The notes: generated by a model not told the origin, from the letters alone. A stretch of 64,000 nt of DNA from Jatrophihabitans sp. (GCA_051001975.1 JBPCMU010000076.1:4836-68835); one strand, 5' to 3'. Positions 5,286 to 51,124 are shown, numbered from the stretch's first letter. Numbers and translations: made by a program.

Positions 5286-5360
5286 GCCCCCGTAGCTCAG
5301 GGGATAGAGCACCGCCCTCCGGAGGCGGTGGCGCAGGTTCGAATCCTGCCGGGGGCACCA
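5286..5360 (+). tRNA. tRNA-Arg (anticodon CCG), encoded CCA end
   Basis: Hand-folded cloverleaf: acceptor GCCCCCG/CGGGGGC, D arm GCTC-AGGGGATA-GAGC, anticodon arm CCGCC-CTCCGGA-GGCGG, T arm GCAGG-TTCGAAT-CCTGC. Confidence 0.9.
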
Positions 5361-5361
5361 C
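5312..5361 (+). repeat. attL core (within the intact tRNA-Arg)
   Basis: CCGCCCTCCGGAGGCGGTGGCGCAGGTTCGAATCCTGCCGGGGGCACCAC, identical to 23579-23628. Confidence 0.85.
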
Positions 5362-5376: not shown

Positions 5377-6576
5377 TCACTGGGCTGCGCTCCGATCCCG
5401 GACCACGTCGAGGTCGACCACAACGGCCGGGGGCAACAAATGGGCAACAGCAGCGGAGCGCGCCGAGTCCATCCGGTCGGCCACTTCGTCGAGCTGGTCG
5501 CCGAACAGGTGCCCGTACTGATCGAGGGTCATCGTCGCCGACTTGTGCCCGAGCATCTGCTGTACCACCTTGACGTTCGCGCCAGAAGCGATGGCCAGCG
5601 ACGCCGCGGTGTGCCGCAGCTCGTGCGGGTGCAGACCCTCTAGGCCGACTGCGGTCGCGGCCGCATCGAACGCGGCGTGCCGGAACACAGCCACCCGCAA
5701 CGCTCCTCCGCCCCGCACACCGGCGAACACCAGGTCGTCGCGACTCTTGCCGGCGACTTGTCCGGCCAGCTCGTCGACGAGGAATCGCGGGATGGGCACG
5801 TCTCGGCGCTCGTGGCCCTTCGGGGTGCCCCACACCTGGCCGCTCCCCTGCACAACGGTGACGGACTCCGCGATCTCGGCCCGGCGACGCAGTAGGTCAA
5901 GCCGGCCCACTCGCAACGCGGCCAGCTCTCCGAACCGCACCCCGGTGTAGGCGAGAAACAGCACGATGAGCCGGTAGTCGCCGGCGCGGCGTTCGCTGTG
6001 CCTGCGGTACTTGCTGATCAGCTCGGGGCGTGGCTGAGCGCACGCCTCGGCAAGCTGCTCGACCTCGGAGTGGGTGAGGTACCGCCGATCGCCGGCGACG
6101 ACTCGCGGCAGCGCGACGCCGTTGGCCGGGTTGCGCACCAGTCGGCCATCCCTGACCGCGAGATCCATCACGAGCGACAGAACCCGGTGGACCTTCCGTA
6201 CCGTCGCCGGTGAGCGCGTCGCGGTCAGTGTGGTGACCTATGCCTGCACGTCGGCATGCGTGACGTCGCCGAGGCGGACCGATCCCCAGCGCGGTGTCAC
6301 ATGCTCGCGCAGGATGCCGGCGTACCGCTCCCGCGTCGATGGTTTGAGGTGCGCCTGCCCATCGAGCCACCGCTGCGCCCAAGCCCCGACCGCGAGACGG
6401 GCCGCGGCCGGGTCAACATAGGACCCGGTCAGCTTCGAAGCCTCGACCGTTGTCAGGAACCGCTCCGCGTCAACCCTCCGGCCGAACGATTTGCTGCGCT
6501 GCTTACCGGCCGGATCGCGATAGTGAGCCCGCCACCGAACTGTCCCACCGCGCTCTCGCTTCTCGACGCTGGCCAT
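5377..6576 (-). pseudogene. tyrosine integrase interrupted by one in-frame TAG (6238-6240)
   Basis: ORFs 6238-6576 (N-terminal SAM-like domain) and 5377-6171 (catalytic domain with HELRHT...LGH) share one frame. Reading across gives ...THADVQA*VTTLTATRSPATVRKVHRVLSLVMDLAVRDGRL. Confidence 0.8.
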
Positions 6577-17632: not shown

Positions 17633-17872
17633 CTACTCACGGAATGCCCGGCAGTAGTCCTCGATCGTGATTCCCGCCGACTTGATCAATCCGCCCAAGG
17701 TTCCGCGCTTGACTGGGTTGTGTGCTGGGATGGAAAGTACCGACCGGTGCCCCGGCTTCGTCATGACGATGTGGGAACCCTTCCCGCGTTTCGGATGCTC
17801 TATCCAGCCGAGGTGAGCAAAGGCCTTCACGTGGCTTCGACACCCGGCGATCGGCAGGTCGGACAGCCCCAC
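17633..17872 (-). CDS. hicA: type II toxin HicA family (mRNA interferase)
   Basis: 79 aa: KAFAHLGWIEHPKRGKGSHIVMTKPGHRSVLSIPAHNPVKRGTLGGLIKSAGI. Starts 4 nt after the hicB stop. Confidence 0.8.
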   Translation of the reverse strand: MGLSDLPIAGCRSHVKAFAHLGWIEHPKRGKGSHIVMTKPGHRSVLSIPAHNPVKRGTLGGLIKSAGITIEDYCRAFRE

Positions 17873-17876
17873 CCGT

Positions 17877-18215
17877 CTAGAGGCTCAGGGCGAATTCGCG
17901 ATCGTCCTGCGCGTCATCGTTGTCGCCGAGGTCTGGGATGTGCGACGTCATTCGGACGGCGACTACTTGACCGATCGCGTCGGCAAGATTCGTCAATGCC
18001 GCCTCCTGGGTCTCACCCTCGGAAAAGCACCCCGGGAGGTCGACGCACTCCGCCGTCCAGCCGCCGTCCAGTTCGTCGCGCTCCAGTCGAACCCGGAAAC
18101 GCCACGTCGACGTGTCATCCGTTCTCTCGGACTCGAAGGCTCGAATCGAGCGTCTAAACCGTGCGAGCAACCTCTGCCAGGCTGATGCGGACGCGACCAT
18201 GTGTTCCCCTTGCAT
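17877..18215 (-). CDS. hicB: type II antitoxin HicB family
   Basis: WRFRVRLERDELDGGWTAECVDLPGCFSEGETQEAALTNLADAI. Start uncertain (ATG ending at 18215 or 18200). Confidence 0.75.
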   Translation of the reverse strand: MQGEHMVASASAWQRLLARFRRSIRAFESERTDDTSTWRFRVRLERDELDGGWTAECVDLPGCFSEGETQEAALTNLADAIGQVVAVRMTSHIPDLGDNDDAQDDREFALSL

Positions 18216-18330
18216 GCTTCCCCCGATGCCGCGATGGCTGACCAAATGTATCCCCCGCTGTCCAGTGCTGCCCTCCGTGGCCCCCAACGCGTGGGCAGCG
18301 ATGGTGCCACGCCGGCCGTAGGGTGCGCCC

Positions 18331-18504
18331 ATGAATCTGTGGAATTAAGTAATCGATGGCCTGGCAGCGATCGAGCGAGACGAAGACGACATCAGTCTTG
18401 ACCGGCGCCTACAGATTGTTCAGATCCGGGCGCTGCTGGCCATCGGTCAGGAGCTCTCCGCAATCCGTCATCAAGGAATCAACCCTGACTTCGACGCAGA
18501 CTGA
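18331..18504 (+). pseudogene. paralogue of the 20704-20877 small gene, with TAA at codon 6
   Basis: Same 174-nt length. Aligns to the second copy along its whole length, including the upstream box CGTAGGGTGCG (18317-18327). Reads MNLWN*VIDGLAAIERDEDD... Confidence 0.6.
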
Positions 18505-18573
18505 GATCCCGAACCATGGCCGGCGACTGCGGACAATCGATCCGCGGCGCGGACTGGCGAGCCTGGTCACCTG

Positions 18574-18873
18574 TCAGCTGCACGTCCCCGCCAGATTGCC
18601 GGCCGTCGCGCCACCGTCGCTGGCCATAGGCACGTCGCGCTTCACATAGCGCGGCGGCTCTCCAGCATCGTCCCTTCGCGAACGCCCATAGCCGCTGGCA
18701 CTTGCGGCTTCAGCCCACGGGATTGGGCTGAGGATTTGTCCGGCCAGCCAGGCGCTGAGGTGGCTCAACGACCCACCCAACTGACTAAGTGTGCGCGCCG
18801 CGATCGGATCATATCCGCAGGTACGGAAAGGGCACTTCACCTCGTCGTTCGCGTGGCAGGTCTGCCCGCGCAC
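18574..18873 (-). CDS. hypothetical Cys-containing ORF overlapping the SIR2 3' end (or a frameshifted SIR2 C-terminus)
   Basis: 99 codons, GTG start. By hand count its third-position GC across 18809-18873 is higher than in the SIR2 frame. CHANDEVKCPFRTC. Confidence 0.35.
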   Translation of the reverse strand: MRGQTCHANDEVKCPFRTCGYDPIAARTLSQLGGSLSHLSAWLAGQILSPIPWAEAASASGYGRSRRDDAGEPPRYVKRDVPMASDGGATAGNLAGTCS

Positions 18874-20134
18874 TGATCATCTGATTGATCCTGGCGCGCA
18901 CATCCGACGCGCTCCAATTTACGATCTCGCCGAGTACTTCTTCTGCCCGCTGAGGTATTACCAGCAGTCGACTCTGGTCCTGCGGCCATTGTCTGCAGAG
19001 GGACTTTTCGACGACCGAACGTTGGTCGGTCGGATCGCCCGCCGCCTGCGAGAAGGAAGGATCGACCACGAGCAACACACGGACAGGGTCAATATTCAGC
19101 CAGCGTGCGAGCATCTCGTTGATGTGATCGTCGGAAAAGGAATACCCGATCACTATCAGGCAAGTGGTGCCAGCAAGACGACTCTCAAGCTCCGACCTAA
19201 GCGCGAGGAACGGCCCGGGGGCGCGAAGCTTCTCTCGCCTGCCGAAGATGACAAACGGCGTCCAATCGTGAGCGACGCTCGGGTCGGTATCGCAACCGGT
19301 GGTGAGCACAGTCCTCGGTAATCGCACCGATGGCAAGGGGCCATCAGGCGAGTACGACCCGTACCGCGGGTCATCGTGGTCACGTGCCCAGTCCACCGAT
19401 CCGTGCAGTTTCAAGAGCCGCACTCCGTGATCCGGCAACACCACGCGACCCTGATTCTCCCAACTCTCAACTCCGGTGGAGCACCTGACATCCGCCAATC
19501 GCGCAGCGGTCTCGATCGTCAAGTCATAGTTGAGCGTTGCGATCGTGACCGCGTTGTTCCTTCCGAGTTCGACCAGCGGTCTGAGGTAATCGAGCCGAGC
19601 CTCATCTTGAACCGCCAAGAGTGGGACGAGGGACTTCACCATGGAATCGAGGAGTTGCTCGTAGACTTTGCCCGTACTGACCCCCATGGCATTTCGAACA
19701 ACGTCACGAAACGCTTTGTCCCGGGAGTGTCTCTGCACCGTCCATAGCGATCGCCGCTCCTGGTAATCCTTCAGAATCCCCGCAACCCAATCGGTTGCTC
19801 CCGCACCGCTGGTCTCGTCCATCGAATTGACGGCGTCCGCCCATTGCACGAATGGAGAAATCTCAACTCGGTCCCGACTGCCAAGGAGTTCAATCGCCGA
19901 CACCACAGTCTCGATGTCGGGCAACGTCTGGGGATCTTCGCCTCGAATGCCCGCGTGATGAATCATGGCCGATACGACGTACCGCAACGCAGCAGCCCGT
20001 TTGCCCGACGGGAACACCGATCGACCATCGCCGAGGTGGTCGATCATCAAGCCAGTGAGCTCGCTGGCCAGCGGGAGATCAGCCGCCTTGGACGCTCCAG
20101 CGCCAAGAAGAAAGATGGGTCGTTCGATTGTCAT
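18809..20134 (-). CDS. SIR2_2-family protein (putative NAD+ hydrolase, defence-type)
   Basis: Start MTIERP at 20134 with RBS GGAAGGGA. Motifs FLLGAGASKAADLP, TLNYD, LLKLHGSVDW and LIVIGYSFSDDHIN. Lower GC than the core genome. Confidence 0.75.
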   Translation of the reverse strand: MTIERPIFLLGAGASKAADLPLASELTGLMIDHLGDGRSVFPSGKRAAALRYVVSAMIHHAGIRGEDPQTLPDIETVVSAIELLGSRDRVEISPFVQWADAVNSMDETSGAGATDWVAGILKDYQERRSLWTVQRHSRDKAFRDVVRNAMGVSTGKVYEQLLDSMVKSLVPLLAVQDEARLDYLRPLVELGRNNAVTIATLNYDLTIETAARLADVRCSTGVESWENQGRVVLPDHGVRLLKLHGSVDWARDHDDPRYGSYSPDGPLPSVRLPRTVLTTGCDTDPSVAHDWTPFVIFGRREKLRAPGPFLALRSELESRLAGTTCLIVIGYSFSDDHINEMLARWLNIDPVRVLLVVDPSFSQAAGDPTDQRSVVEKSLCRQWPQDQSRLLVIPQRAEEVLGEIVNWSASDVRARINQMISARADLPRERRGEVPFPYLRI

Positions 20135-20438
20135 CAGGCGTCCCTTCCGCGTAGGCATTCCACCGGCCGGTCGCAGGCGAACTGGCATACCGTCTCACCC
20201 TCAGCGCCGCTGAAAAAGCACGGGAGTGCAGCCATGGGCCTTTCGACGAAACGGTTTGATAGCAGGGGCCCCCGTCGGGCTGAGAGTTGGGGCATCGACG
20301 TATCCGGTTCGTTCCGCTCTCAGGCTGGTCTTCTGATAGCTCGCAGGGGCACGGCCGCGGCGGTCGCTCCGGCTCATCTCGGTGGCCATCGTCGACCGTG
20401 AACGCTGCCGGATCGTCGTTGTCGTACCAGGTCGCCAG

Positions 20439-20573
20439 TCAGTCCCGGGCCATCCAGCGGGCGCCCTCGTAAGTGCACCAACATGTGGCGCCGGTAGTTC
20501 CGTCGTCGACCTCGATGAACGCCGTGAACATCTGCTCTTCAGGCACGATGCGGACGGTCACAGCCTTGGGCAT
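20439..20573 (-). CDS. short ORF upstream of SIR2, ended by TGA with the frame staying open beyond it
   Basis: 44 codons (MPKAVTVRIVPEEQMFTAFIEVDDGTTGATCWCTYEGARWMARD) with 36/44 G/C third positions. The same frame is open for 119 further codons to the next stop at 20079-20081. No obvious RBS. Confidence 0.35.
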   Translation of the reverse strand: MPKAVTVRIVPEEQMFTAFIEVDDGTTGATCWCTYEGARWMARD

Positions 20574-20703
20574 AAGGGCGAAACGCTAGACCGGAAGATG
20601 CCCGAGCACAAGACTGACGCTCCGTCGCACCATCGACTGGGCTGCGGGTGGGTAGCGGGCTGACCGGGAGCGTAAAAGCGCCAGCCGTCGTAGGGTGCGG
20701 AGC

Positions 20704-20877
20704 ATGGATCTGTGGAACGAGGCTTTCGCCGACCTAGCCGCGATCGAGCGAGACGACAAAGCCCCGGATATTGACCGGCGTCTACAGATCGCTCAGATCC
20801 GGGCACTCCTGGCCATCGGCCAGCAGCTGTCAGAGATCCGTCACCTAGGCATCAACCCCAAATTCGACACGGACTGA
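20704..20877 (+). CDS. small hypothetical protein (57 aa from the ATG, or 60 aa from the GTG at 20695)
   Basis: MDLWNEAFADLAAIERDDKAPDIDRRLQIAQIRALLAIGQQLSEIRHLGINPKFDTD. Intact paralogue of 18331-18504. Confidence 0.55.
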   Translation: MDLWNEAFADLAAIERDDKAPDIDRRLQIAQIRALLAIGQQLSEIRHLGINPKFDTD

Positions 20878-20973: not shown

Positions 20974-21838
20974 TCACCGCGGTAGCGCAAGTATCGCTGC
21001 CCGGCGTTGTTCGTCGTCGATCATGGTGTATACCGCGGTTGTGGCCGGCGACGCGTGGCGCAGCAGCTCCTGCGCGACTCGTAGGTTCCCGCCCGACGCT
21101 CGGAGGATCTCTGTTCCGAAGTGGTGTCGGAGCTGGTGGGCGGTGGCGTTCACGCCGGATCGGCGCAGCGCGGCACTTATCACCCCCGAGACCGAGTTCG
21201 CGGTCACCGGCTCCCCTTCACAGTAGGGCGACGGGAACCACCACCCCACCGCCGGGTATCGCGCCGCCTCGGCGGCGATGACCGGATGAACTGGCAGATC
21301 TGCGGCCACCTTGCCCTTACCGACGACACGCAGGCTATCTCCGGTGAAGTCTTCACCGCGGATCTTCGCGATCTCGTGGACCCGCAGACCCTGATATGCG
21401 CCGAGCAGGATCATCGTCCGAGTCCGACCGTAGAACCGCCCCGACTCGAGCACCTGCTGCAACTGCAGCACACTGACCGGCCGCCGGTGACCGGCGGGGC
21501 GTCTTCGGCGGGTGCAGTTTTCCGGTCGGATCGTCGAGGCGGTGGTCCATGATCACCAGCCAGCGGAACCACGACCGGAGGTGCTGAAAGTAGGTCGACC
21601 TGGTCCCCGCGGAGAACAGATCGCTGCTGTCAGCGAAGAACCCTGCCAGGTGCTGCCACGAACACTCCGCGGCCGGCACACCGGTGCGAGTCTCGAGCAG
21701 GCGGACCAACTGCACCCGGTCATCAATTGTCCGGGGACTCATCGCGCCAGCCACCATCCACAGCGTCCAGTCCGCCAGCAGCCCGTCGGTCTGAGCCGAC
21801 GACGATCGAGGCTGGGCGTCGAAACGGTGGCGGGTCAT
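20974..21838 (-). pseudogene. tyrosine recombinase, frameshifted
   Basis: N-terminal domain ORF 21353-21838 and catalytic ORF 20974-21471 (HQLRHHF...LLRHAS...Y) are in different frames. The junction is near 21485 (..KTPRR | PVSVLQLQQVLES). Confidence 0.7.
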
Positions 21839-21908: not shown

Positions 21909-22739
21909 TCACAGCACGGCCGCCGCTCTGACGGCAGTGCTCAGCGCACCCTCCGGCACCGCCGTGTACAGAGCGGTTGTCTCCGGCTTGGTGTGTCCCA
22001 GCAACGTCTGGACCGCTCTGAGATCCCGCTCCGCCGCGTAGGCGGTGGACGCGAACCTGTGCCGCAGCATATGTGCGGTCACCCCGGGCCCCAGCTGCGC
22101 GGACATCAGTTTTCCGACATGTGCCGGCGTCATCGGTGTGTCCGGCTGCGTTGGCCTCGGGAACAGCCAGCCGGCCGGTCTACCGGCGATCGCCTGAGCG
22201 ACGATCGGCGGCAAGGGAACTACCCGCACCCGGTCACCCTTGCCACGCACCCGCAGCGCACCGGCGCTGATGTCATCGGTATGGACCTTCGCGATCTCAC
22301 ACCGGCGCAGACCGCACACGGCCGCCAGCAAGATCATCAGCCTCAGTCGGCTACCCGACCCGGCCAACGCAAACCTGATCCGCTCATCCGGCGCGGGCCG
22401 AGGAACGCCAATGCTGGCCGGCACTCCCGGCAATGTAATCGTTGGATCGGCCTCACACCGTCCGGTCAAGACCGCCCACCGGTAGAAGCCTCGGATCGTG
22501 GTGCGAAACGACCGGCGCGTCTCCGCACGCCAGCTCCTCGAAGCCAGCCAGGACACCAGGACGGCAGGTGTCACCTCCCACGGAGTCACCGTGGAAAGAT
22601 CTCGTGCCAACCTCGCGAGCTGGAGACGCCTCAGATCGATCGTCGTCTCCGGACGTCCACCTGCTCGCATGAAGTCTGACCACTCCGCGATCGCCTCGAC
22701 CCAACGCTCAGGCACCGACCACCGCTCCGGGCCGCTCAC
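21909..22739 (-). CDS. tyrosine recombinase (XerC/D-like), intact
   Basis: 276 aa: GLRRCEI...HMLRHRFAS...LLGHTKPETTALY. Confidence 0.8.
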   Translation of the reverse strand: MSGPERWSVPERWVEAIAEWSDFMRAGGRPETTIDLRRLQLARLARDLSTVTPWEVTPAVLVSWLASRSWRAETRRSFRTTIRGFYRWAVLTGRCEADPTITLPGVPASIGVPRPAPDERIRFALAGSGSRLRLMILLAAVCGLRRCEIAKVHTDDISAGALRVRGKGDRVRVVPLPPIVAQAIAGRPAGWLFPRPTQPDTPMTPAHVGKLMSAQLGPGVTAHMLRHRFASTAYAAERDLRAVQTLLGHTKPETTALYTAVPEGALSTAVRAAAVL

Positions 22740-23080
22740 GCCCTGCGCCCCTCGAGGTCGAAATCGAACCCCGTGATGATCTCCAGCCGGTCCGCAGCGT
22801 CAAGCAACGCCGCGGCGAACAGGCGCGCCTCGACAGCGGTGAGCGCGAGACCAGCCACCTGGATGCACGCCGGCTCGCCCGGCCCTCCTTCCGGGTTGCC
22901 GACCGTTTCGCACCGAGCAACCTCCACCTCGACGACCCGGCCCCCGTCCAGCTGCCGCTCAACCGCGCCAATCACCAGCTGATGCGTGCGCAGCACCGAA
23001 CCGTCGAACTCACGGCACAGGTAGTCGTCCAAGTCGTGCCTGTCGTCCAGGTCGCACCAGTCGGGGCACGCAGGCACCAT
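22736..23080 (-). CDS. hypothetical protein with CPxWC motif
   Basis: MVPACPDWCDLDDRHDLDDYLCREF... GTGA overlap with the downstream recombinase. The upstream part of track ORF 22736-23533 looks non-coding. Confidence 0.5.
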   Translation of the reverse strand: MVPACPDWCDLDDRHDLDDYLCREFDGSVLRTHQLVIGAVERQLDGGRVVEVEVARCETVGNPEGGPGEPACIQVAGLALTAVEARLFAAALLDAADRLEIITGFDFDLEGRRA

Positions 23081-23127
23081 GAACCCGCCGTGTGAGCTGG
23101 TCAGCAGACCGTTCGACACCCTGCGGC

Positions 23128-23423
23128 TCACGAGGTCACGCACTCGGCCGCGTGAGCCAGCTCGAGCAGCGCGCCTGGGTGACACCGTCCCCGCCCCCGC
23201 GTCCAACTCGATCGCGTCGAACCGCTCCAATGCAGGCTCGACGAGGGTTGCCCCGGACCGCTCGTAGGGCTGAACTCGGCGACCATCGAGACCGTCGTCC
23301 CCGCCAGCCGACGCCAAGTGATCGATGCCTCGTTCAGATCGTGCTCCGTCGCCCACGCCGGCGGATCCCACCCGTTGATGCGGTGAATCTTCGCGGCGCT
23401 GCGGTGGATCGTGGTGCTGTTCA
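23128..23423 (-). CDS. hypothetical protein (possibly frameshifted)
   Basis: MNSTTIHRSAAKIHRINGWDPPAWATEHDL... has high third-position GC. The C-terminal part is low-complexity, and a second frame carries plausible sequence. Confidence 0.3.
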
Positions 23424-23578
23424 TGGATGGGCTCCCTCGTAGAGTTGATCTTGCTCTGGGCAACGCTGGGGCAACGGCAGGGCAGCAAACAGCCAGCTTC
23501 GGCCAACGCTGCCAACGCGTGGAGGTACCGCAAATTGGGAGGTCCACGCCCTACCGGTGTCAGCCAACGCCGGATGAT

Positions 23579-23628
23579 CCGCCCTCCGGAGGCGGTGGCG
23601 CAGGTTCGAATCCTGCCGGGGGCACCAC
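23579..23628 (+). repeat. attR core (3' fragment of tRNA-Arg, not a functional tRNA)
   Basis: Identical to 5312-5361. The 5' half of the tRNA is absent. Confidence 0.85.
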
Positions 23629-28696: not shown

Positions 28697-29672
28697 GTGA
28701 ACCCATCGTGGCCAGCACGGCGGTCGGCTCGTACCCGCAGTGCGCCATGCAGTTGTTGCACCGCTCGTCCTTGCCGCGGCCGTACTTGTCCCAGTCGGTC
28801 GTCTCGAGGAGTTCCTTGTACGTTTTGGCGTAGCCGTCGGCCATCAGGTAGCAGGGCTTCTGCCAGCCGAGCAGCGAGTAGGACGGGATGCCCCACGCGG
28901 TGCACTGGAAGTCGGTCTTGCCTTCGAGGAAGTCGAGGAACAGCGGCGAGTGGTTCAACCGCCAGCGCTTGCGGTTGCCGCCGGCGAACGCCTTCGAGAA
29001 CAGTTCGCGGGTCTCGGTCACGCCGAGGAAGTGGTCCTGGTCGGGCGCCTTCTCGTAGGCGTAGGCCGGCGAGAGCATCATGCTGTCGACCTTGACCTCG
29101 TCGTTCAGGAAGTTCATCACGTCGATGATCGTCTGCGGGGTGTCGGTGTTGAAGAACGTCGAATTGGTGGTGACCCGGAAGCCCTTCTCCTTCAGGAACT
29201 TGATGGCTGCGACCGCCTCGTCGAAAACGCCCTCCTTGGCGACCGACTCGTCGTGGCGGGCCTGCAGCCCGTCCACGTGGATGGCGAAGGAGAAGTACGG
29301 CGACGGCATGAAGTTGAACTTGTCCCAGCGCTTGCGCACCAGCTCTGCGTTGGTGCAGAGGTAGACGTACTTCTTGCGCTTGACGAGCTCGTTCACCATC
29401 TCGTCGATCTGCGGATGCATCAACGGCTCACCGCCGGCGATCGACACCATCGGCGCACCGGATTCGAGGATCGCGTTCACCGCGCGGTCGACGGGCATCC
29501 GCTGCCGCAACAGGTCGTGCGGCTGCTGGATCTTGCCGCAGCCGTTGCATTTCAGGTTGCAGGCGAAGAGCGGTTCGAGCTCGACGATCAAAGGGAACTT
29601 CTCGACGCGGCGCACCTTCTTGGAGAACAGGTACCAACCGATACGTGCGCCTTGGCGAAGTGGGATAGCCAT
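28659..29672 (-). CDS. hpnH: adenosyl-hopene transferase, radical SAM
   Basis: True start MAIPLRQG at 29672 (TAATG overlap with the upstream stop). CNLKCNGC radical-SAM motif. The track ORF is extended by an artefactual N-terminus. Confidence 0.9.
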   Translation of the reverse strand: MAIPLRQGARIGWYLFSKKVRRVEKFPLIVELEPLFACNLKCNGCGKIQQPHDLLRQRMPVDRAVNAILESGAPMVSIAGGEPLMHPQIDEMVNELVKRKKYVYLCTNAELVRKRWDKFNFMPSPYFSFAIHVDGLQARHDESVAKEGVFDEAVAAIKFLKEKGFRVTTNSTFFNTDTPQTIIDVMNFLNDEVKVDSMMLSPAYAYEKAPDQDHFLGVTETRELFSKAFAGGNRKRWRLNHSPLFLDFLEGKTDFQCTAWGIPSYSLLGWQKPCYLMADGYAKTYKELLETTDWDKYGRGKDERCNNCMAHCGYEPTAVLATMGSLKQGLRAMREQG

Positions 29673-31189
29673 TAACCTGCAACTCCTCTGGGCAGCGTGA
29701 ACGTGATGTCTTCCTTCGCGACAACGCGTTCGTCGACATCGACGGGGCCAAGCGCACGCAGGGTGTGCAGAACCTCGTCGACGAGATGGGGCGGTGCTGA
29801 CGCGCCGGCGGTGAGACCGACGGTAGTCGTTCCGGCGAGCCACTCGGGCATGATCCCGGCAGCGTCGTCGACCAGATGGGCCGGCGTACCGTGCCGCTCG
29901 GCGACTTCGACCAACCGCAGCGAGTTGGACGAGTTCGTCGAGCCCACCACGATGACCACATCCGAGTCGGCCGCGATGGCGGCGACGGCACGTTGGCGGT
30001 TGGTGGTGGCGTAACAGATGTCGTCTGTAGCCGACGACTCGATCAACGGGAACCGCCGGCGCAGCACATCGACGGTGGACGCAGCTTCCTCCACAGCCAG
30101 CGTGGTCTGCATCAGGAAGGCGACCCGGCCCGGATCGTCCACGGCTACCCGCTCGGCATCCTCGACGGTCTCGACGAGGGTGATCTTGCCCGGCACCTCG
30201 CCAAGCGTGCCTTCGGTCTCGTCGTGATCGGCGTGGCCGATGAGGAAAACTGAGTCGCCACGACCGACGAAGCGCCGGGCCTCGGCGTGCACCTTGGCCA
30301 CCAGTGGGCAGGTCGCGTCGATCACGTTGAGATCGCGCTTGGCCGCCTCCTCGCGGACCGCCGGGGCAACGCCGTGCGCGGAAAACACGACGGTGGTGCC
30401 GTCCGGCACCTCGTCGAGTTCGTCGACGAACACCGCGCCCTGCCGCTGCAGGTCGGCCACCACGTGCGCGTTGTGCACGATCTGGCGGCGTACATAGACC
30501 GGCCGCGAGTAGCGCTGCAGCGCGGCCTCGACGATGTCGATGGCCCGGTCGACGCCGGCGCAGAACGAGCGCGGTCCGGCCAGCAGCACCTGTCGTGGCC
30601 CGGCCAGGTCGGCCCACCGACGCAGCGCCGGACCGACCCTGCGCAACGCGAGCAGCGCCTTCGCGCCGGAGGGGATGGTGGCCAGTCGGGCGACCGGGCT
30701 GTGCGGCGTGTCGACGATGATCCGGACGACGGCGATCGGCAGTGGGCGTTGCGGATGCTCGAGGGCGCGCACCAGAGCCGCAGACTCCATGTCGACGGCC
30801 AGTGCGCCCGTCGCGGCGAGCTTCTCGCGCTCAGCGGCGCCCTGCACGACGTGATCGGTGCTCACCATCGGACCGATGTGCACCCGCAGCCCCATCGCTC
30901 GCAACTCGGCCACCAACGGTTGTGCGGCTCTCAGCACGATGCGCCCATGCACGTCGCGGACCTCGCTGGCGATGAAGACGTCGCCCGGCCGCATCGAGGG
31001 GTCGAGGGCACCGGCCACCCCTGCCACTGCCACAGCGTCCGGGCTCAGCTCGGACAATTGCGGCAACCACCGCTGCACCCGCTCCGGACCCATGCCGCAG
31101 CGCAGCACGATGGCGCCGGGTACCCGCCTGCGCAACGCCGCGTACTCGCTGCGCAGGGCCGTTATTACCACTAGGCCATCGGTCATCAC
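29672..31189 (-). CDS. hpnG/ispH: fusion of HpnG-like nucleosidase/phosphorylase and IspH (HMBPP reductase)
   Basis: Residues about 1-195 are PNP_UDP-like (VAVAGVAGAL...VDMESAA). From about residue 200 the sequence is VLLAGPRSFCAGVDRAIDIVE...TCPLVAKVH...SSNS, typical of IspH. No stop between the two parts. Confidence 0.8.
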   Translation of the reverse strand: MMTDGLVVITALRSEYAALRRRVPGAIVLRCGMGPERVQRWLPQLSELSPDAVAVAGVAGALDPSMRPGDVFIASEVRDVHGRIVLRAAQPLVAELRAMGLRVHIGPMVSTDHVVQGAAEREKLAATGALAVDMESAALVRALEHPQRPLPIAVVRIIVDTPHSPVARLATIPSGAKALLALRRVGPALRRWADLAGPRQVLLAGPRSFCAGVDRAIDIVEAALQRYSRPVYVRRQIVHNAHVVADLQRQGAVFVDELDEVPDGTTVVFSAHGVAPAVREEAAKRDLNVIDATCPLVAKVHAEARRFVGRGDSVFLIGHADHDETEGTLGEVPGKITLVETVEDAERVAVDDPGRVAFLMQTTLAVEEAASTVDVLRRRFPLIESSATDDICYATTNRQRAVAAIAADSDVVIVVGSTNSSNSLRLVEVAERHGTPAHLVDDAAGIMPEWLAGTTTVGLTAGASAPPHLVDEVLHTLRALGPVDVDERVVAKEDITFTLPRGVAG

Positions 31190-43094: not shown

Positions 43095-43940
43095 TCAGTC
43101 GTTGATGCCGGTGCGCTCGACGCCCTGGACGATGTAGCGCTGCAACAGCAGGAAGACGACCAGTAGCGGCAGGATCGAGAACAGCGCGGCGGTGAACAGT
43201 TCGTGCAGCCGGATGGTCTGCGCAGTGAGGAATGTCGACAGCGAGAGTTGCACCGTCCAGGACTGCGGGTCCTGCGCGATGACAAGTGGCCAGAGAAACG
43301 CGTTCCAGCTTCCGATGAACGTCAGCGCGCCGACTGCGGCAAAGATCGGCTTCGAGTTCGGTACGACGATGCGCCAATACGCACCCCAGTAGCCGAGCCC
43401 GTCGATGCGTGCGGCCTCCTCCAGTTCGGCCGGGAAACCGAGGAAGTACTGCCGGAACAGGAACGCCGCGAACGCCTGGAACAGGCCCGGCACGATGATT
43501 CCGCGCAGCGTGCTGACCCAGCCCAAGGACGAGACCAGCACGAAGCTGGGCACGAATGTGACAGCGGCCGGAATGAGCAGCGTGCCGAGCACGAAGATGA
43601 AGACCAGGTTGGCATGTCGGTACGGGATGCGGGCCAGTCCGTAGCCGGCCAGCGACGCCAGCACGATCACGCCGACGGTCTGCACGACCGCGATGACGAT
43701 CGAGTTGACCATGCTTCGCAGCATTGGCACCGACGGGTCGTCGAACAGCTCCTTGATGTTTCCCCAGTGCAGATGCGACGGGAAGAACTTCCAATTCGGC
43801 GACGTGATGTCCAGATCGGTACTCAATGCATTGCGGACCAACAGATAGAACGGCAACAGAAACAGCACGGTGCCGATCACCAATAACACGTAGCGCAACG
43901 TCGAGCCGGACCGCTCGATCGCGGTGCGTTGGCGTCTCAT
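43095..43940 (-). CDS. carbohydrate ABC transporter permease
   Basis: Start MRRQRTA at 43940. EAA-loop motif ELEEAARIDGLGYWGAYWRIVVP. Confidence 0.9.
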   Translation of the reverse strand: MRRQRTAIERSGSTLRYVLLVIGTVLFLLPFYLLVRNALSTDLDITSPNWKFFPSHLHWGNIKELFDDPSVPMLRSMVNSIVIAVVQTVGVIVLASLAGYGLARIPYRHANLVFIFVLGTLLIPAAVTFVPSFVLVSSLGWVSTLRGIIVPGLFQAFAAFLFRQYFLGFPAELEEAARIDGLGYWGAYWRIVVPNSKPIFAAVGALTFIGSWNAFLWPLVIAQDPQSWTVQLSLSTFLTAQTIRLHELFTAALFSILPLLVVFLLLQRYIVQGVERTGIND

Positions 43941-49157: not shown

Positions 49158-50375
49158 ATGTCTGGTTGGATCGAGGCCATGTCGACCCCTCCTCCGGACC
49201 AGCCGGGGCCTCAGCCACCGCAACCGGGCCAGCCGCAGCCGGGTCAACAGCCGCTCGGCCCGCCGCAGCCGCAGGGGTATCAGCAACAGCCCCAGCAGCC
49301 GGTTCCGATGCAATCGCAGCCCGGATCGCATGGGCATCCGGTCGGTCCGCCGCAGCCTCCTGGCGGCGTCCCGGGGCGCATTGTCATCGAGAACCTGAGC
49401 AAGAGTTTCGGCACTGTGCACGCGGTGACCAACCTGAGCTTCAGCGTCGAGCCCGGATCGGTTACCGGATTCCTCGGCCCCAACGGAGCCGGCAAGACGA
49501 CCACCCTGCGGATGCTGCTCGGCCTGGTGAAGCCCACCGGGGGAGTGGCCACCATCGAAGGACGGCCCTACAGCCAACTGAAAAATCCGTTGCGCGTCGT
49601 GGGTGCGGCACTGGAGGCATCGAGCTTCCACCCGGCCCGGACCGGCCGGAACCATCTGCGCGTTTATGCAGCCGCCGCCGGGCTGCCCGATGCCCGGGTC
49701 GACCAGCTGCTGGAGATGGTCGGGCTGCGTGATGCAGCGAAGCGCAAGGTCAAGGGCTACTCGATGGGCATGCGGCAGCGTCTCGCGCTGGCCGCCACCC
49801 TGCTCGGTGACCCCCGGGTGCTCATCCTCGATGAGCCGGCCAACGGTCTGGACCCGGAGGGCATCCGCTGGTTACGCGGGTTCTTCCGCCACCTCGCCGC
49901 CGAGGGGCGCACCGTCCTGGTCTCCAGCCATCAGCTGAACGAGGTCCAGGAGTTCGCCGACCGAGTCGTCATCCTCAACCGGGGCTCGCTGGTCCGAGCC
50001 GGCTCGATCGAGGAACTGACCGCCGGCACTGACACCGTGGTGACCCGCAGCCCGCAGGCCGACCAGCTCGCCGACGCGCTGTCGAAGGCAGGCAAGGAAG
50101 TCCAACGCACCGACGAGGACACCGTCCGGGTGCGTTCGGGCGACACGGCCGAGGTCGGCCACCTAGCCTTCACCAACGGAATCGAACTGCACGAGCTGTC
50201 GGTGGAGAAGTTCGATCTCGAGCAGTTGTTCTTTGCGCTCACCCAAGGGCAGTACCAGGGCGCCGACCTCGGTGGCGGTCCACCCCTGCAACCCGGTCCG
50301 CTCCAGCAACCCGGGCCACCGCAGGCGCCCGGCCAGCCACCGGCCCAGCAGCCGAACGGAGGCGCCCGGTCATGA
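49158..50375 (+). CDS. ABC transporter ATP-binding protein with Pro/Gln-rich termini
   Basis: Walker A GPNGAGKTT, signature YSMGMRQR, Walker B LILDEP. About 70-aa PQ-rich N-terminus and PQ-rich C-terminus. Confidence 0.85.
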   Translation: MSGWIEAMSTPPPDQPGPQPPQPGQPQPGQQPLGPPQPQGYQQQPQQPVPMQSQPGSHGHPVGPPQPPGGVPGRIVIENLSKSFGTVHAVTNLSFSVEPGSVTGFLGPNGAGKTTTLRMLLGLVKPTGGVATIEGRPYSQLKNPLRVVGAALEASSFHPARTGRNHLRVYAAAAGLPDARVDQLLEMVGLRDAAKRKVKGYSMGMRQRLALAATLLGDPRVLILDEPANGLDPEGIRWLRGFFRHLAAEGRTVLVSSHQLNEVQEFADRVVILNRGSLVRAGSIEELTAGTDTVVTRSPQADQLADALSKAGKEVQRTDEDTVRVRSGDTAEVGHLAFTNGIELHELSVEKFDLEQLFFALTQGQYQGADLGGGPPLQPGPLQQPGPPQAPGQPPAQQPNGGARS

Positions 50376-51124
50376 ACCTCGTCCGATCAGAATTCCGGAA
50401 GCTGTTCAGCACCCAGGTCTGGTTCTGGCTGCTACTCACCTGCGTCACGCTCACCGCTCTGGGGGTGTGGGGAACGATTGGCGGCAATGACGACGCGGAG
50501 CTGACGCAGAACGTCAGGAATGTGTTCGTCTCTGCCCAAGCTGCGTTCACCTATGTTCCACTCTTCGTGCTCGGCGTCCTGGCGGTCACTACCGAGTTCC
50601 GCTACCAGACGATCACGCCGACGGTGCTGGCAACGCCCTCACGGTGGTCTGTCGTCGGAGCGAAGATCATCACGTACGTGGGAGTCGGGATCCTGTACGC
50701 GTTGGTCTGTCTCGTCGTGGAGCTTGCGATGGCCCTGCCGTGGCTCTCCGCGCGCAACATCGACTACAGCCTGGGCGATCAGAGCGGCGCGATCTTCTCG
50801 ACCTTCCTCGTGCTGGTGCTGTTCACCCTGTTCGGCATCGGAGCAGGGGCGCTGCTGCGTAATCAGATCGTCGCGGTGACCCTCGGAATCATCTTCATCA
50901 TCGTTCTCGGAAACATCGTGTTGATCATCCCGGGGGTCAAGTACATCTATCCGTACCTGCCGACCGGTTTGGTGAACGCCATAGCGACGCAGGCCAGCGA
51001 CTCGCGGACCATCAACGATGTGACGCTCTTGTCCGCCGGTGCGGCGGTCGGGATCTTGGTGATCTGGGGACTCGGGATGTCACTGCTGGGTGCCGGGCTG
51101 TCGATGAACCGTGACATCACCTGA
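50372..51124 (+). CDS. ABC-2 type transporter permease
   Basis: 250 aa, six hydrophobic segments. ATGA overlap with the ATPase gene. Confidence 0.8.
   Translation: MNLVRSEFRKLFSTQVWFWLLLTCVTLTALGVWGTIGGNDDAELTQNVRNVFVSAQAAFTYVPLFVLGVLAVTTEFRYQTITPTVLATPSRWSVVGAKIITYVGVGILYALVCLVVELAMALPWLSARNIDYSLGDQSGAIFSTFLVLVLFTLFGIGAGALLRNQIVAVTLGIIFIIVLGNIVLIIPGVKYIYPYLPTGLVNAIATQASDSRTINDVTLLSAGAAVGILVIWGLGMSLLGAGLSMNRDIT

Follow-up and report, generated by a model that had tools for sequence, protein, structure and literature searches.

SIR2-type hydrolases of nicotinamide adenine dinucleotide (NAD+), or NADases, are among the commonest effectors of abortive infection, and the well-studied ones rely either on a partner (a prokaryotic Argonaute (pAgo), HerA or TIR signalling) or on a fused sensor domain. 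The window analysed here, a 64,000-nt stretch of a Jatrophihabitans sp. genome (GCA_051001975.1, JBPCMU010000076.1:4836-68835), contains a minus-strand gene at positions 18809-20134 that encodes a 441-aa protein with SIR2_2 motifs. Is this protein a defence effector and, if so, does it act by itself or together with the small open reading frames (ORFs) and repeats that surround it? A first-pass annotation of the window had favoured the second possibility and described a candidate defence module. Our analysis suggests a different answer: by analogy with its relatives, the protein would be a self-contained NAD+ hydrolase that constitutes a single-gene abortive-infection module, a reading to which we assign a probability of roughly 0.6.

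A SIR2 protein with the features of a defence NADase

The 441-aa protein has an exact counterpart (100% identity) at NCBI, annotated as hypothetical in a metagenome-assembled genome (MAG) of Jatrophihabitans sp. (locus tag ACR2KJ_11240). The signature set reported by the first-pass annotation was located at residues 11-15 (GAGAS), 200-204 (TLNYD), 242-246 (KLHGS) and 330-336 (GYSFSDD), and a Pfam search matched SIR2_2 (PF13289) at 46.2 bits, above the gathering threshold of 24.5 bits (E = 6.5e-12), which places the protein in that family. SIR2_2 was the sole Pfam match, and no ligand-sensing domain was recognised by Pfam or in the structural model. Three residues, N202, D204 and H244, do not vary among 117 homologues, and the G11-S15 loop is at least 90% kept; all of these residues are present in the 441-aa protein. 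Judged by its sequence, the protein is an intact defence-type enzyme with a full set of catalytic residues.

A structural model was built by AlphaFold2 (AF2) with the 117 homologues (pLDDT 88.3, pTM 0.87). The predicted fold consists of a Rossmann core, beginning at residue 7, and a helical domain of ~170 residues inserted after the first strand. Foldseek ranked the SIR2 protein of SIR2-HerA first in the PDB (E = 5e-10), followed by SPARSA, KomBC, DSR2 and ThsA, so that the leading matches are defence SIR2s; the classical sirtuins 1s7g, 1yc2 and 1s5p were weaker matches and stood below them. The sequence matches in the PDB were exclusively SIR2-HerA proteins. The translation contains four scattered cysteines and no CxxC zinc module, and the small domain of the model is all-helical, without the zinc-binding Cys4 arrangement of the CobB/Sir2Af-type deacylases.

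A partner-less clade sister to bAgaS

We identified more than 370 homologues at E <= 1e-5, which retain the motifs. From a collection with one genome per species, 80 SIR2-anchored loci were analysed by ORF clustering and PADLOC. In 33 distant loci, HerA lies directly downstream of SIR2, and in 14 of the 80 a pAgo of the long-B type (PADLOC pAgo_II) lies directly upstream. The 26 closest loci that were clustered form a solitary group, mostly from Actinomycetota, whose SIR2 proteins share 27-41% identity with the 441-aa protein. A neighbour-joining tree, which is a rough distance tree, resolved the same three clades (standalone, pAgo and HerA) and placed the standalone clade as sister to the pAgo clade. 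The 441-aa protein belongs to this monophyletic, partner-less clade of ~400-aa proteins, sister to bAgaS, the SIR2 effector of the long-B pAgo system BPAS.

ORF clustering revealed no conserved partner: no ORF family is present in more than two of the 26 closest loci, and none was found across the 80 loci either. Among 118 neighbouring proteins no Pfam family occurs in more than three, and phmmer detected no similarity among the genes that abut SIR2 starts. Neither pAgo nor HerA is encoded in the window or in the closest SIR2 loci, and the Pfam and PADLOC scans of the window genes found no SLOG, HerA, pAgo or TIR partner, in agreement with the first-pass annotation. As the 26 clustered loci (28 were examined for neighbours), six contexts from contigs and two from plasmids all lack a partner, solitariness goes back to the origin of the clade and is no accident of this locus.

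The genes around the homologues vary, and many of these neighbourhoods are enriched in defence or mobile genes, in keeping with the defence-type assignment of the first-pass annotation. Neighbours include genes for a relaxase, ParE/Phd, CHAT, TIR/ThsB, MazG, Nmad2, AbiEi/Eii, RES-Xre, an OLD-like ATPase, GmrSD, a DSR-like SIR2-DUF4020 protein, serine recombinases and a restriction endonuclease. Homologues are also located on Arthrobacter and Curtobacterium plasmids. The distribution of the clade is patchy, its genomic positions vary, and no relative of the SIR2 protein was found in cultured phage genomes.

Some individual loci are recorded here for their layout. One (L126, 4938-8182) carries a TIR_2 gene, a gene for a second, SIR2-like protein (344 aa, with GAGAS at its start) and the SIR2 gene, all co-oriented. 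In another (L083, 6913-9251) a divergent TIR gene adjoins SIR2; this locus and L082 contain several ThsB_TIR genes. In L125 (6742-8706), the giant DSR-like SIR2-DUF4020 protein is encoded ~5 kb from SIR2. Three homologues are broken into two or three ORFs (L009, 3876-5164; L023, 356-1560; L039, 6960-7993), one of them from another Jatrophihabitantaceae MAG; they are either frameshifted pseudogenes or assembly errors.

Comparison with described SIR2 systems

The best PADLOC matches of the 441-aa protein were the Aga_SIR2 models of pAgo-associated proteins (2e-38, 130 bits). An hhalign comparison of the solitary family with 13 pAgo-linked SIR2 proteins aligned 320 columns, nearly the whole protein, with a probability of 100%, an E value of 6e-48 and 27% identity. 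The two families share the GAGAS, LNYDL, KLHGS and GYSFxDxHxN motifs and, in the helical domain, the motif (D/N)IE..V..ELL...E..PF(V/I).sW. The bAgaS protein (PADLOC Aga_SIR2 class II) depletes NAD+ and is lethal alone; its pAgo suppresses it, and recognition of an invader releases it (Song et al. 2023, PMC10620215). The N155A substitution in GbbAgaS abolishes both NAD+ depletion and toxicity (PMC10620215). In the hhalign alignment, which does not include GbbAgaS itself, N202 of the 441-aa protein pairs with the LNYDL asparagine of the bAgaS family, and we assume that N155 is this asparagine.

There are also differences from bAgaS. A pAgo gene is missing beside the gene of the 441-aa protein, from the rest of the window and beside every other clade member, and the operon with a long-B (catalytically inactive) pAgo that defines BPAS is therefore absent. 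Its PADLOC score is about one third of that of a single pAgo-linked SIR2 protein scanned in the same way (336-426 bits on the same two models), and the two groups form separate sister clades. The solitary clade is found mostly in Actinomycetota; Bacteroidota, Planctomycetota and others are the source of the pAgo-linked loci. Finally, a helical segment of ~40 residues (~116-157) is present only in the solitary family and faces a gap in the pAgo-linked proteins.

Other systems are less close. The SIR2 proteins of SIR2-HerA (Nezha) provide the best solved structures (8wld, 8uae, 8su9, 8j4u and 8yhx; TM 0.47-0.60) and have the same NADase core, but no HerA gene occurs here or in the close loci, the two groups are separate clades, and the sequence similarity lies mostly within the C-terminal half. 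Against the NCBIfam equivalog NF042942 (SIR2_antiphage), the 441-aa protein scored 44.7 bits, below the curated cut-off of 500 bits. DSR1/DSR2 and ThsA are likewise SIR2 NADase effectors, single-protein or signal-activated, that deplete NAD+ on infection, and they gave weaker structural matches; DSR1 and DSR2 are, however, ~1000 aa long with a C-terminal sensor, whereas the 441-aa protein has no DUF4020 or other C-terminal domain. The protein also differs from Thoeris in having no SLOG (or Macro) domain and no TIR/ThsB among the window genes scanned.

A solitary precedent has been described. Sole-Sir2 is a single protein of ~440 aa whose only domain is Sir2-like; it has NADase activity in vitro, and E. 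coli carrying a homologue is protected against T2 and T4; its genes lie within type I-C CRISPR operons, mainly in Neisseria, and its N-terminal part is not Sir2-like (bioRxiv 10.1101/2024.12.27.630466). Compared by this published description only, sole-Sir2 resembles the 441-aa protein in its solitary architecture and size, and differs in its N-terminal part, since the Rossmann fold of the 441-aa protein starts near the N-terminus. No known partner is present. The earlier statement that the gene combination matches no described system has to be qualified: bAgaS of BPAS is the closest described relative, and a solitary Sir2 has been reported. The comparative data strengthen the plausible reading of the protein as a defence NADase. 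Among the known SIR2 NADase effectors, it is best regarded as a solitary variant related to bAgaS.

How a single-gene module might work

In the reading that we prefer, the SIR2 protein would be held inactive in uninfected cells. Inhibition would probably come from its own helical insertion domain with the ~40-residue insert, from its oligomeric state, or from both; the inhibitory role that the pAgo partner plays in BPAS would here be built into SIR2 itself. Among related proteins, the SIR2 of SIR2-HerA assembles into dodecamers and ThsA into filaments. An infection cue would then activate the enzyme, NAD+ would be depleted and phage replication would halt. The insert, which the model folds into helices with lower confidence than the rest of the protein (block pLDDT ~71-75) and which falls in variable alignment columns, is a candidate regulatory or sensor element. 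A more tentative extension would let this segment replace the Argonaute altogether: it would restrain an intrinsically toxic enzyme and would also be the site at which a phage cue is recognised, making the protein a self-sufficient sensor-effector; we regard this as less likely than not.

Several observations weigh against a single-gene abortive-infection module. The function of the solitary clade is deduced by analogy with relatives at ~27% identity, and autoinhibition by the insert is a step that we purely infer. Since bAgaS is toxic alone and restrained by its pAgo, a partner-less relative needs some other control. In about a quarter of the homologues a non-homologous gene abuts the SIR2 start, and lineage-specific partners may exist. 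Metabolic genes lie beside some homologues, and the fragmentation of several homologues would be compatible with frequent decay or dispensability of the gene. Around the SIR2 gene itself, a scan that is weak for Actinomycetota detected no sigma-70-type promoter and no terminator.

The gene within a decayed prophage-like element

The SIR2 gene lies in an 18.3-kb element bounded by a perfect 50-bp direct repeat (50/50), which corresponds to the attachment sites attL and attR at a tRNA-Arg gene (Table 1). The first-pass annotation had placed the gene beside hicBA in a mobile element; both points hold, and the att repeats sharpen the limits. The HicB-like gene stands directly upstream of hicA, the canonical position, which backs its assignment as the antitoxin, and its true start is probably downstream of 18332. 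Further genes of the element encode HTH_17 excisionase-like proteins, a replication initiator and RecT. No capsid, terminase or tail genes were found in it, and the lack of tail genes after the tape-measure-like gene indicates a prophage remnant. The element is prophage-like and decayed; it is either what is left of a prophage or, possibly, satellite-like. Two of its recombinase genes are split, one with a break at ~6171-6238 and one into overlapping halves in different frames, which reflects either real decay or MAG assembly errors. An Rfam scan found nothing besides the tRNA fragment at the att site.

Table 1. Positions of the annotated features, counted from the first nucleotide of the window.
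Feature	Coordinates	Strand	Evidence and remarks
tRNA-Arg(CCG); its 3' 50 nt form attL (5312-5361)	5286-5361	plus	ARAGORN
Tyrosine integrase next to the tRNA gene, split, probably disrupted	5377-6576 (ORFs 5377-6171, 6238-6576)	minus	PHROG integrase, 3e-47 and 4e-12; Pfam Phage_integrase, Phage_int_SAM_3
Tape-measure-like protein, 1296 aa	13404-17294	plus	Weak PHROG matches to tape measure/tail protein, 2e-6 and 8e-6
hicA toxin	17633-17872	minus	Pfam HicA_toxin, 46.9 bits (cut-off 27 bits)
HicB-like antitoxin	17877-18332	minus	HicB_lk_antitox, 22.6 bits, below the 27-bit cut-off; domain at residues 83-147
Repeat copy 1, disrupted small gene	18317-18504 (frame 18331-18504)	plus	In-frame TAA at codon 6 (18346-18348)
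orf99, 99-codon ORF over the SIR2 3' end, most likely no gene	18574-18873	minus	Codon score ~0
Solitary SIR2_2 protein, candidate NADase effector	18809-20134	minus	441 aa; PF13289, PADLOC Aga_SIR2, AF2, Foldseek
Clade-specific helical insert of SIR2 (residues ~116-157)	19666-19791	minus	hhalign gap against bAgaS; AF2 helices H110-130, H135-150
up44, orphan 44-codon ORF upstream of SIR2	20439-20573	minus	Codon usage coding-like; unconserved
Repeat copy 2, intact 57-aa gene	20689-20877 (coding sequence 20704-20877)	plus	PGAP ACR2KJ_11245
Xer-like tyrosine recombinase, split by a frameshift	20974-21838 (20974-21471, 21353-21838)	minus	Pfam and NCBIfam, C- and N-terminal halves
Second Xer-like tyrosine recombinase, 276 aa	21909-22739	minus	Pfam Phage_integrase, 63.5 bits; NCBIfam XerC-like
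DUF6907-like protein adjoining attR	22736-23533	minus	Pfam DUF6907, 25.5 bits, just under the 26-bit cut-off
attR, duplicated 3' half of tRNA-Arg	23579-23628	plus	blastn 100% over 50 nt, E 8e-24; weak Rfam tRNA match at 23563-23624

The window is GC-rich DNA (about 68%). From 68% GC in the core genome, the base composition falls in steps: the rest of the element has ~67%, the segment enclosed by the direct repeats 61.9% and the SIR2 coding sequence 59.4%, the lowest value in the element. This bears out the low GC content reported earlier, and the codon score of the SIR2 gene is lowest with the core model. These data show that SIR2 is a horizontally acquired, low-GC cargo gene beside hicAB.

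Ordinary core genes lie outside the element, for example those for 2-oxoglutarate dehydrogenase, a glycosyl hydrolase and ABC transporters. PADLOC matches to mad3, AriA, mad8 and HEC-01A all fell on one 405-aa protein (49158-50375) and were rejected, as Pfam identifies it as an ABC-transporter ATPase; an ABC-2 permease gene follows, the pair occupying 49158-51124. Runs of short plus-strand ORFs at 28888-29700 and 43192-43848, with GC contents of 0.33-0.48 at the first codon position (GC1) and 0.81-0.96 at the third (GC3), may be artefacts of GC3-based gene calling or unusual small genes.

Alternative explanations

The protein could be a toxin-type addiction or stabilisation gene, that is, a constitutive NADase toxin without phage sensing, curbed by tight repression or by a lineage-specific antitoxin such as the product of up44; it would stabilise the mobile element in the manner of the neighbouring hicAB. 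The closest characterised relative, bAgaS, kills alone and is restrained by a binding partner; SIR2 adjoins hicAB, a bona fide toxin-antitoxin pair; toxin-antitoxin modules (ParE/Phd, RES-Xre, AbiE) are frequent near homologues; and an unrelated gene abuts the start of several of them. On the same strand upstream of SIR2, up44 has a codon score of 0.30-0.36 bits per codon, which is coding-like. However, 305 nt separate it from the SIR2 start, and the frames of the two differ; it is missing from all SIR2 loci, and has neither homologues nor family matches (Pfam, PADLOC, NCBIfam) nor similarity to HicB; this unconserved orphan may be a gene remnant. Moreover, in most of the closest loci that were examined no upstream gene abuts SIR2, and the element has already decayed, so a benefit from stabilisation is uncertain. 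Taken together, these findings make an addiction function unlikely.

A second explanation is that the gene is an orphaned or decaying effector, left over from a pAgo-SIR2 or TIR-SIR2 pair that lost its sensor and now inert cargo. This would fit the broken genes around it (the split integrase, the frameshifted recombinase, repeat copy 1 and the tape-measure gene without tail genes), the unconserved C-terminal tail of ~25 aa in the 441-aa protein, the fragmentation of some homologues and the constant presence of pAgo in members of the sister clade. The SIR2 ORF is nevertheless intact and keeps every invariant residue, the whole clade is partner-less, its solitary state being ancestral, and the retention of motifs in the more than 370 homologues argues for purifying selection on solitary genes. 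An inert remnant is quite improbable.

SIR2 might also be a trans-acting effector, switched on by a molecule or protein from an unlinked or loosely linked sensor such as TIR, in the manner of Thoeris but without SLOG. TIR genes do occur beside homologues in several loci (L082, L083 and L126), yet TIR is not among the recurring Pfam families of the neighbours, the 64-kb window yielded no match to TIR, ThsB or SLOG, and SIR2 itself has no recognisable ligand-sensing domain. We give this possibility little weight.

Small ORFs and direct repeats around the gene

The first-pass annotation had joined SIR2 to three unusual elements, namely orf99, the interrupted upstream ORF and two flanking 57-aa genes. 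The ORFs and repeats all exist where it placed them, and each was analysed separately.

The 99-codon, Cys-containing orf99 overlaps SIR2 by 65 nt, as reported. Its codon score is ~0 bits per codon, both over its whole length and in the non-overlapping part, while confident genes score 0.15-0.48; outside the overlap its GC content is flat across the three codon positions (GC1/2/3 0.71/0.64/0.67). The reported better codon bias of orf99 in the overlap was not reproduced: in these 22 codons a trained codon model scored orf99 no better than the SIR2 frame, and only the raw GC3 favoured it. The codon signal of SIR2 is weak in the overlap because the residues concerned belong to its unconserved C-terminal tail. 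No family match was found in Pfam, PADLOC or NCBIfam, and tblastn and tblastx found no match in 84 loci (the 80 SIR2-anchored ones and four obtained by contig look-up) or elsewhere in the window. On these grounds orf99 was dropped as a gene; by its sequence it is most likely non-coding.

The upstream ORF up44 and its TGA are real, but the claim that its frame stays open into the SIR2 start does not hold: the frame is offset by +1 and therefore cannot read into SIR2. As the segment past the TGA also has a negative codon score, read-through into SIR2 was ruled out.

The direct repeats share 76.7% identity over 189 nt (E = 1.2e-35), and each unit consists of a small gene with ~25 nt upstream that include the ribosome-binding region. 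Both copies had been described as encoding a 57-aa protein, which is true of copy 2 alone. Copy 1 has an early stop codon and no later in-frame start, although its codon score is still coding-like (0.31-0.33 bits per codon). Between the copies, dS is ~0.66 and dN/dS is 0.29, falling to 0.14 in the C-terminal 34 codons; the two diverged long ago as functional genes under purifying selection. Because of this ancient divergence the repeats were not generated by an insertion, and their gene and ribosome-binding-site content likewise excludes transposon or insertion ends. A 17-nt inverted repeat flanking SIR2 was at chance level.

The small gene belongs to a real, conserved and unannotated family. 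A word-indexed search with the 57-aa protein returned the query alone; exhaustive HMMER was needed to reveal its relatives, which form 79 representative clusters at E <= 1e-3 and are ~60 aa long. We analysed 39 other loci of this family (L085-L123), from metagenomes and viral contigs, as far as their flanks were readable. The small gene had one of two contexts: either it directly precedes the major head protein gene and follows TerL, portal and a scaffold-like ORF, or it has an integrase gene as its neighbour. Longer relatives share only the C-terminal 35 residues and occupy the position of the scaffolding protein. By analogy, the family recalls the small scaffold mimics encoded by satellites. 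AF2 predicts a helical hairpin for the product of copy 2, for which Foldseek against viral structures was uninformative (all E > 3), and no relative was found in cultured phage genomes. Example loci are L106 (2165-7104), L116 and L098 (4497-6177), some with the order TerL, portal, an ORF X, small gene and major head protein; in other loci the small gene stands directly after TerL or beside an integrase.

No SIR2 or HicAB homologue lies near the small gene in any of the 39 other loci. The repeats are best explained as bystanders at a mosaic junction within a graveyard of prophages, not as the ends of a cassette. The simplest account of the local layout, which we infer, is mosaic recombination between related prophages or satellites, with the small genes as junctions and subsequent decay of copy 1.

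A multi-component system of SIR2, orf99, the interrupted ORF and the two small genes is very improbable, even though its parts exist and the small gene is a conserved family. None of the three elements lies beside any of ~35 close SIR2 homologues. The small-gene family resides in head modules or beside integrases, copy 1 is disrupted, orf99 has no coding signal, and up44 is out of frame with a non-coding read-through part; the comparative data have already largely refuted this model.

That the protein is a housekeeping or regulatory sirtuin (a protein deacylase) that chanced into a mobile element is hardly credible: the SIR2 fold is common to both types and some homologues have metabolic neighbours, but the Pfam match is to SIR2_2 and not to the classical SIR2 family, a zinc-binding CxxC pair is missing, the top matches by structure and by profile belong without exception to defence NADases, and the patchy distribution, variable positions, plasmid-borne homologues and low GC content do not suit such a role.

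Implications

The value of a single-gene module at this locus would be moderate, as the effector chemistry is known, a solitary Sir2 precedent exists, and the local repeats and the overlapping and interrupted ORFs are incidental. The SIR2 gene is not called by defence finders that depend on partners, and such genes are probably under-counted. Its solitary relatives occur across Actinomycetota, carried by prophage remnants, conjugative elements and plasmids, which raises the question of how a minimal SIR2 is silenced and triggered. If the insert does serve as the sensor, the protein would represent an immune effector freed from a nucleic-acid-guided sensor and would offer a minimal system for the gating of SIR2 NADases.

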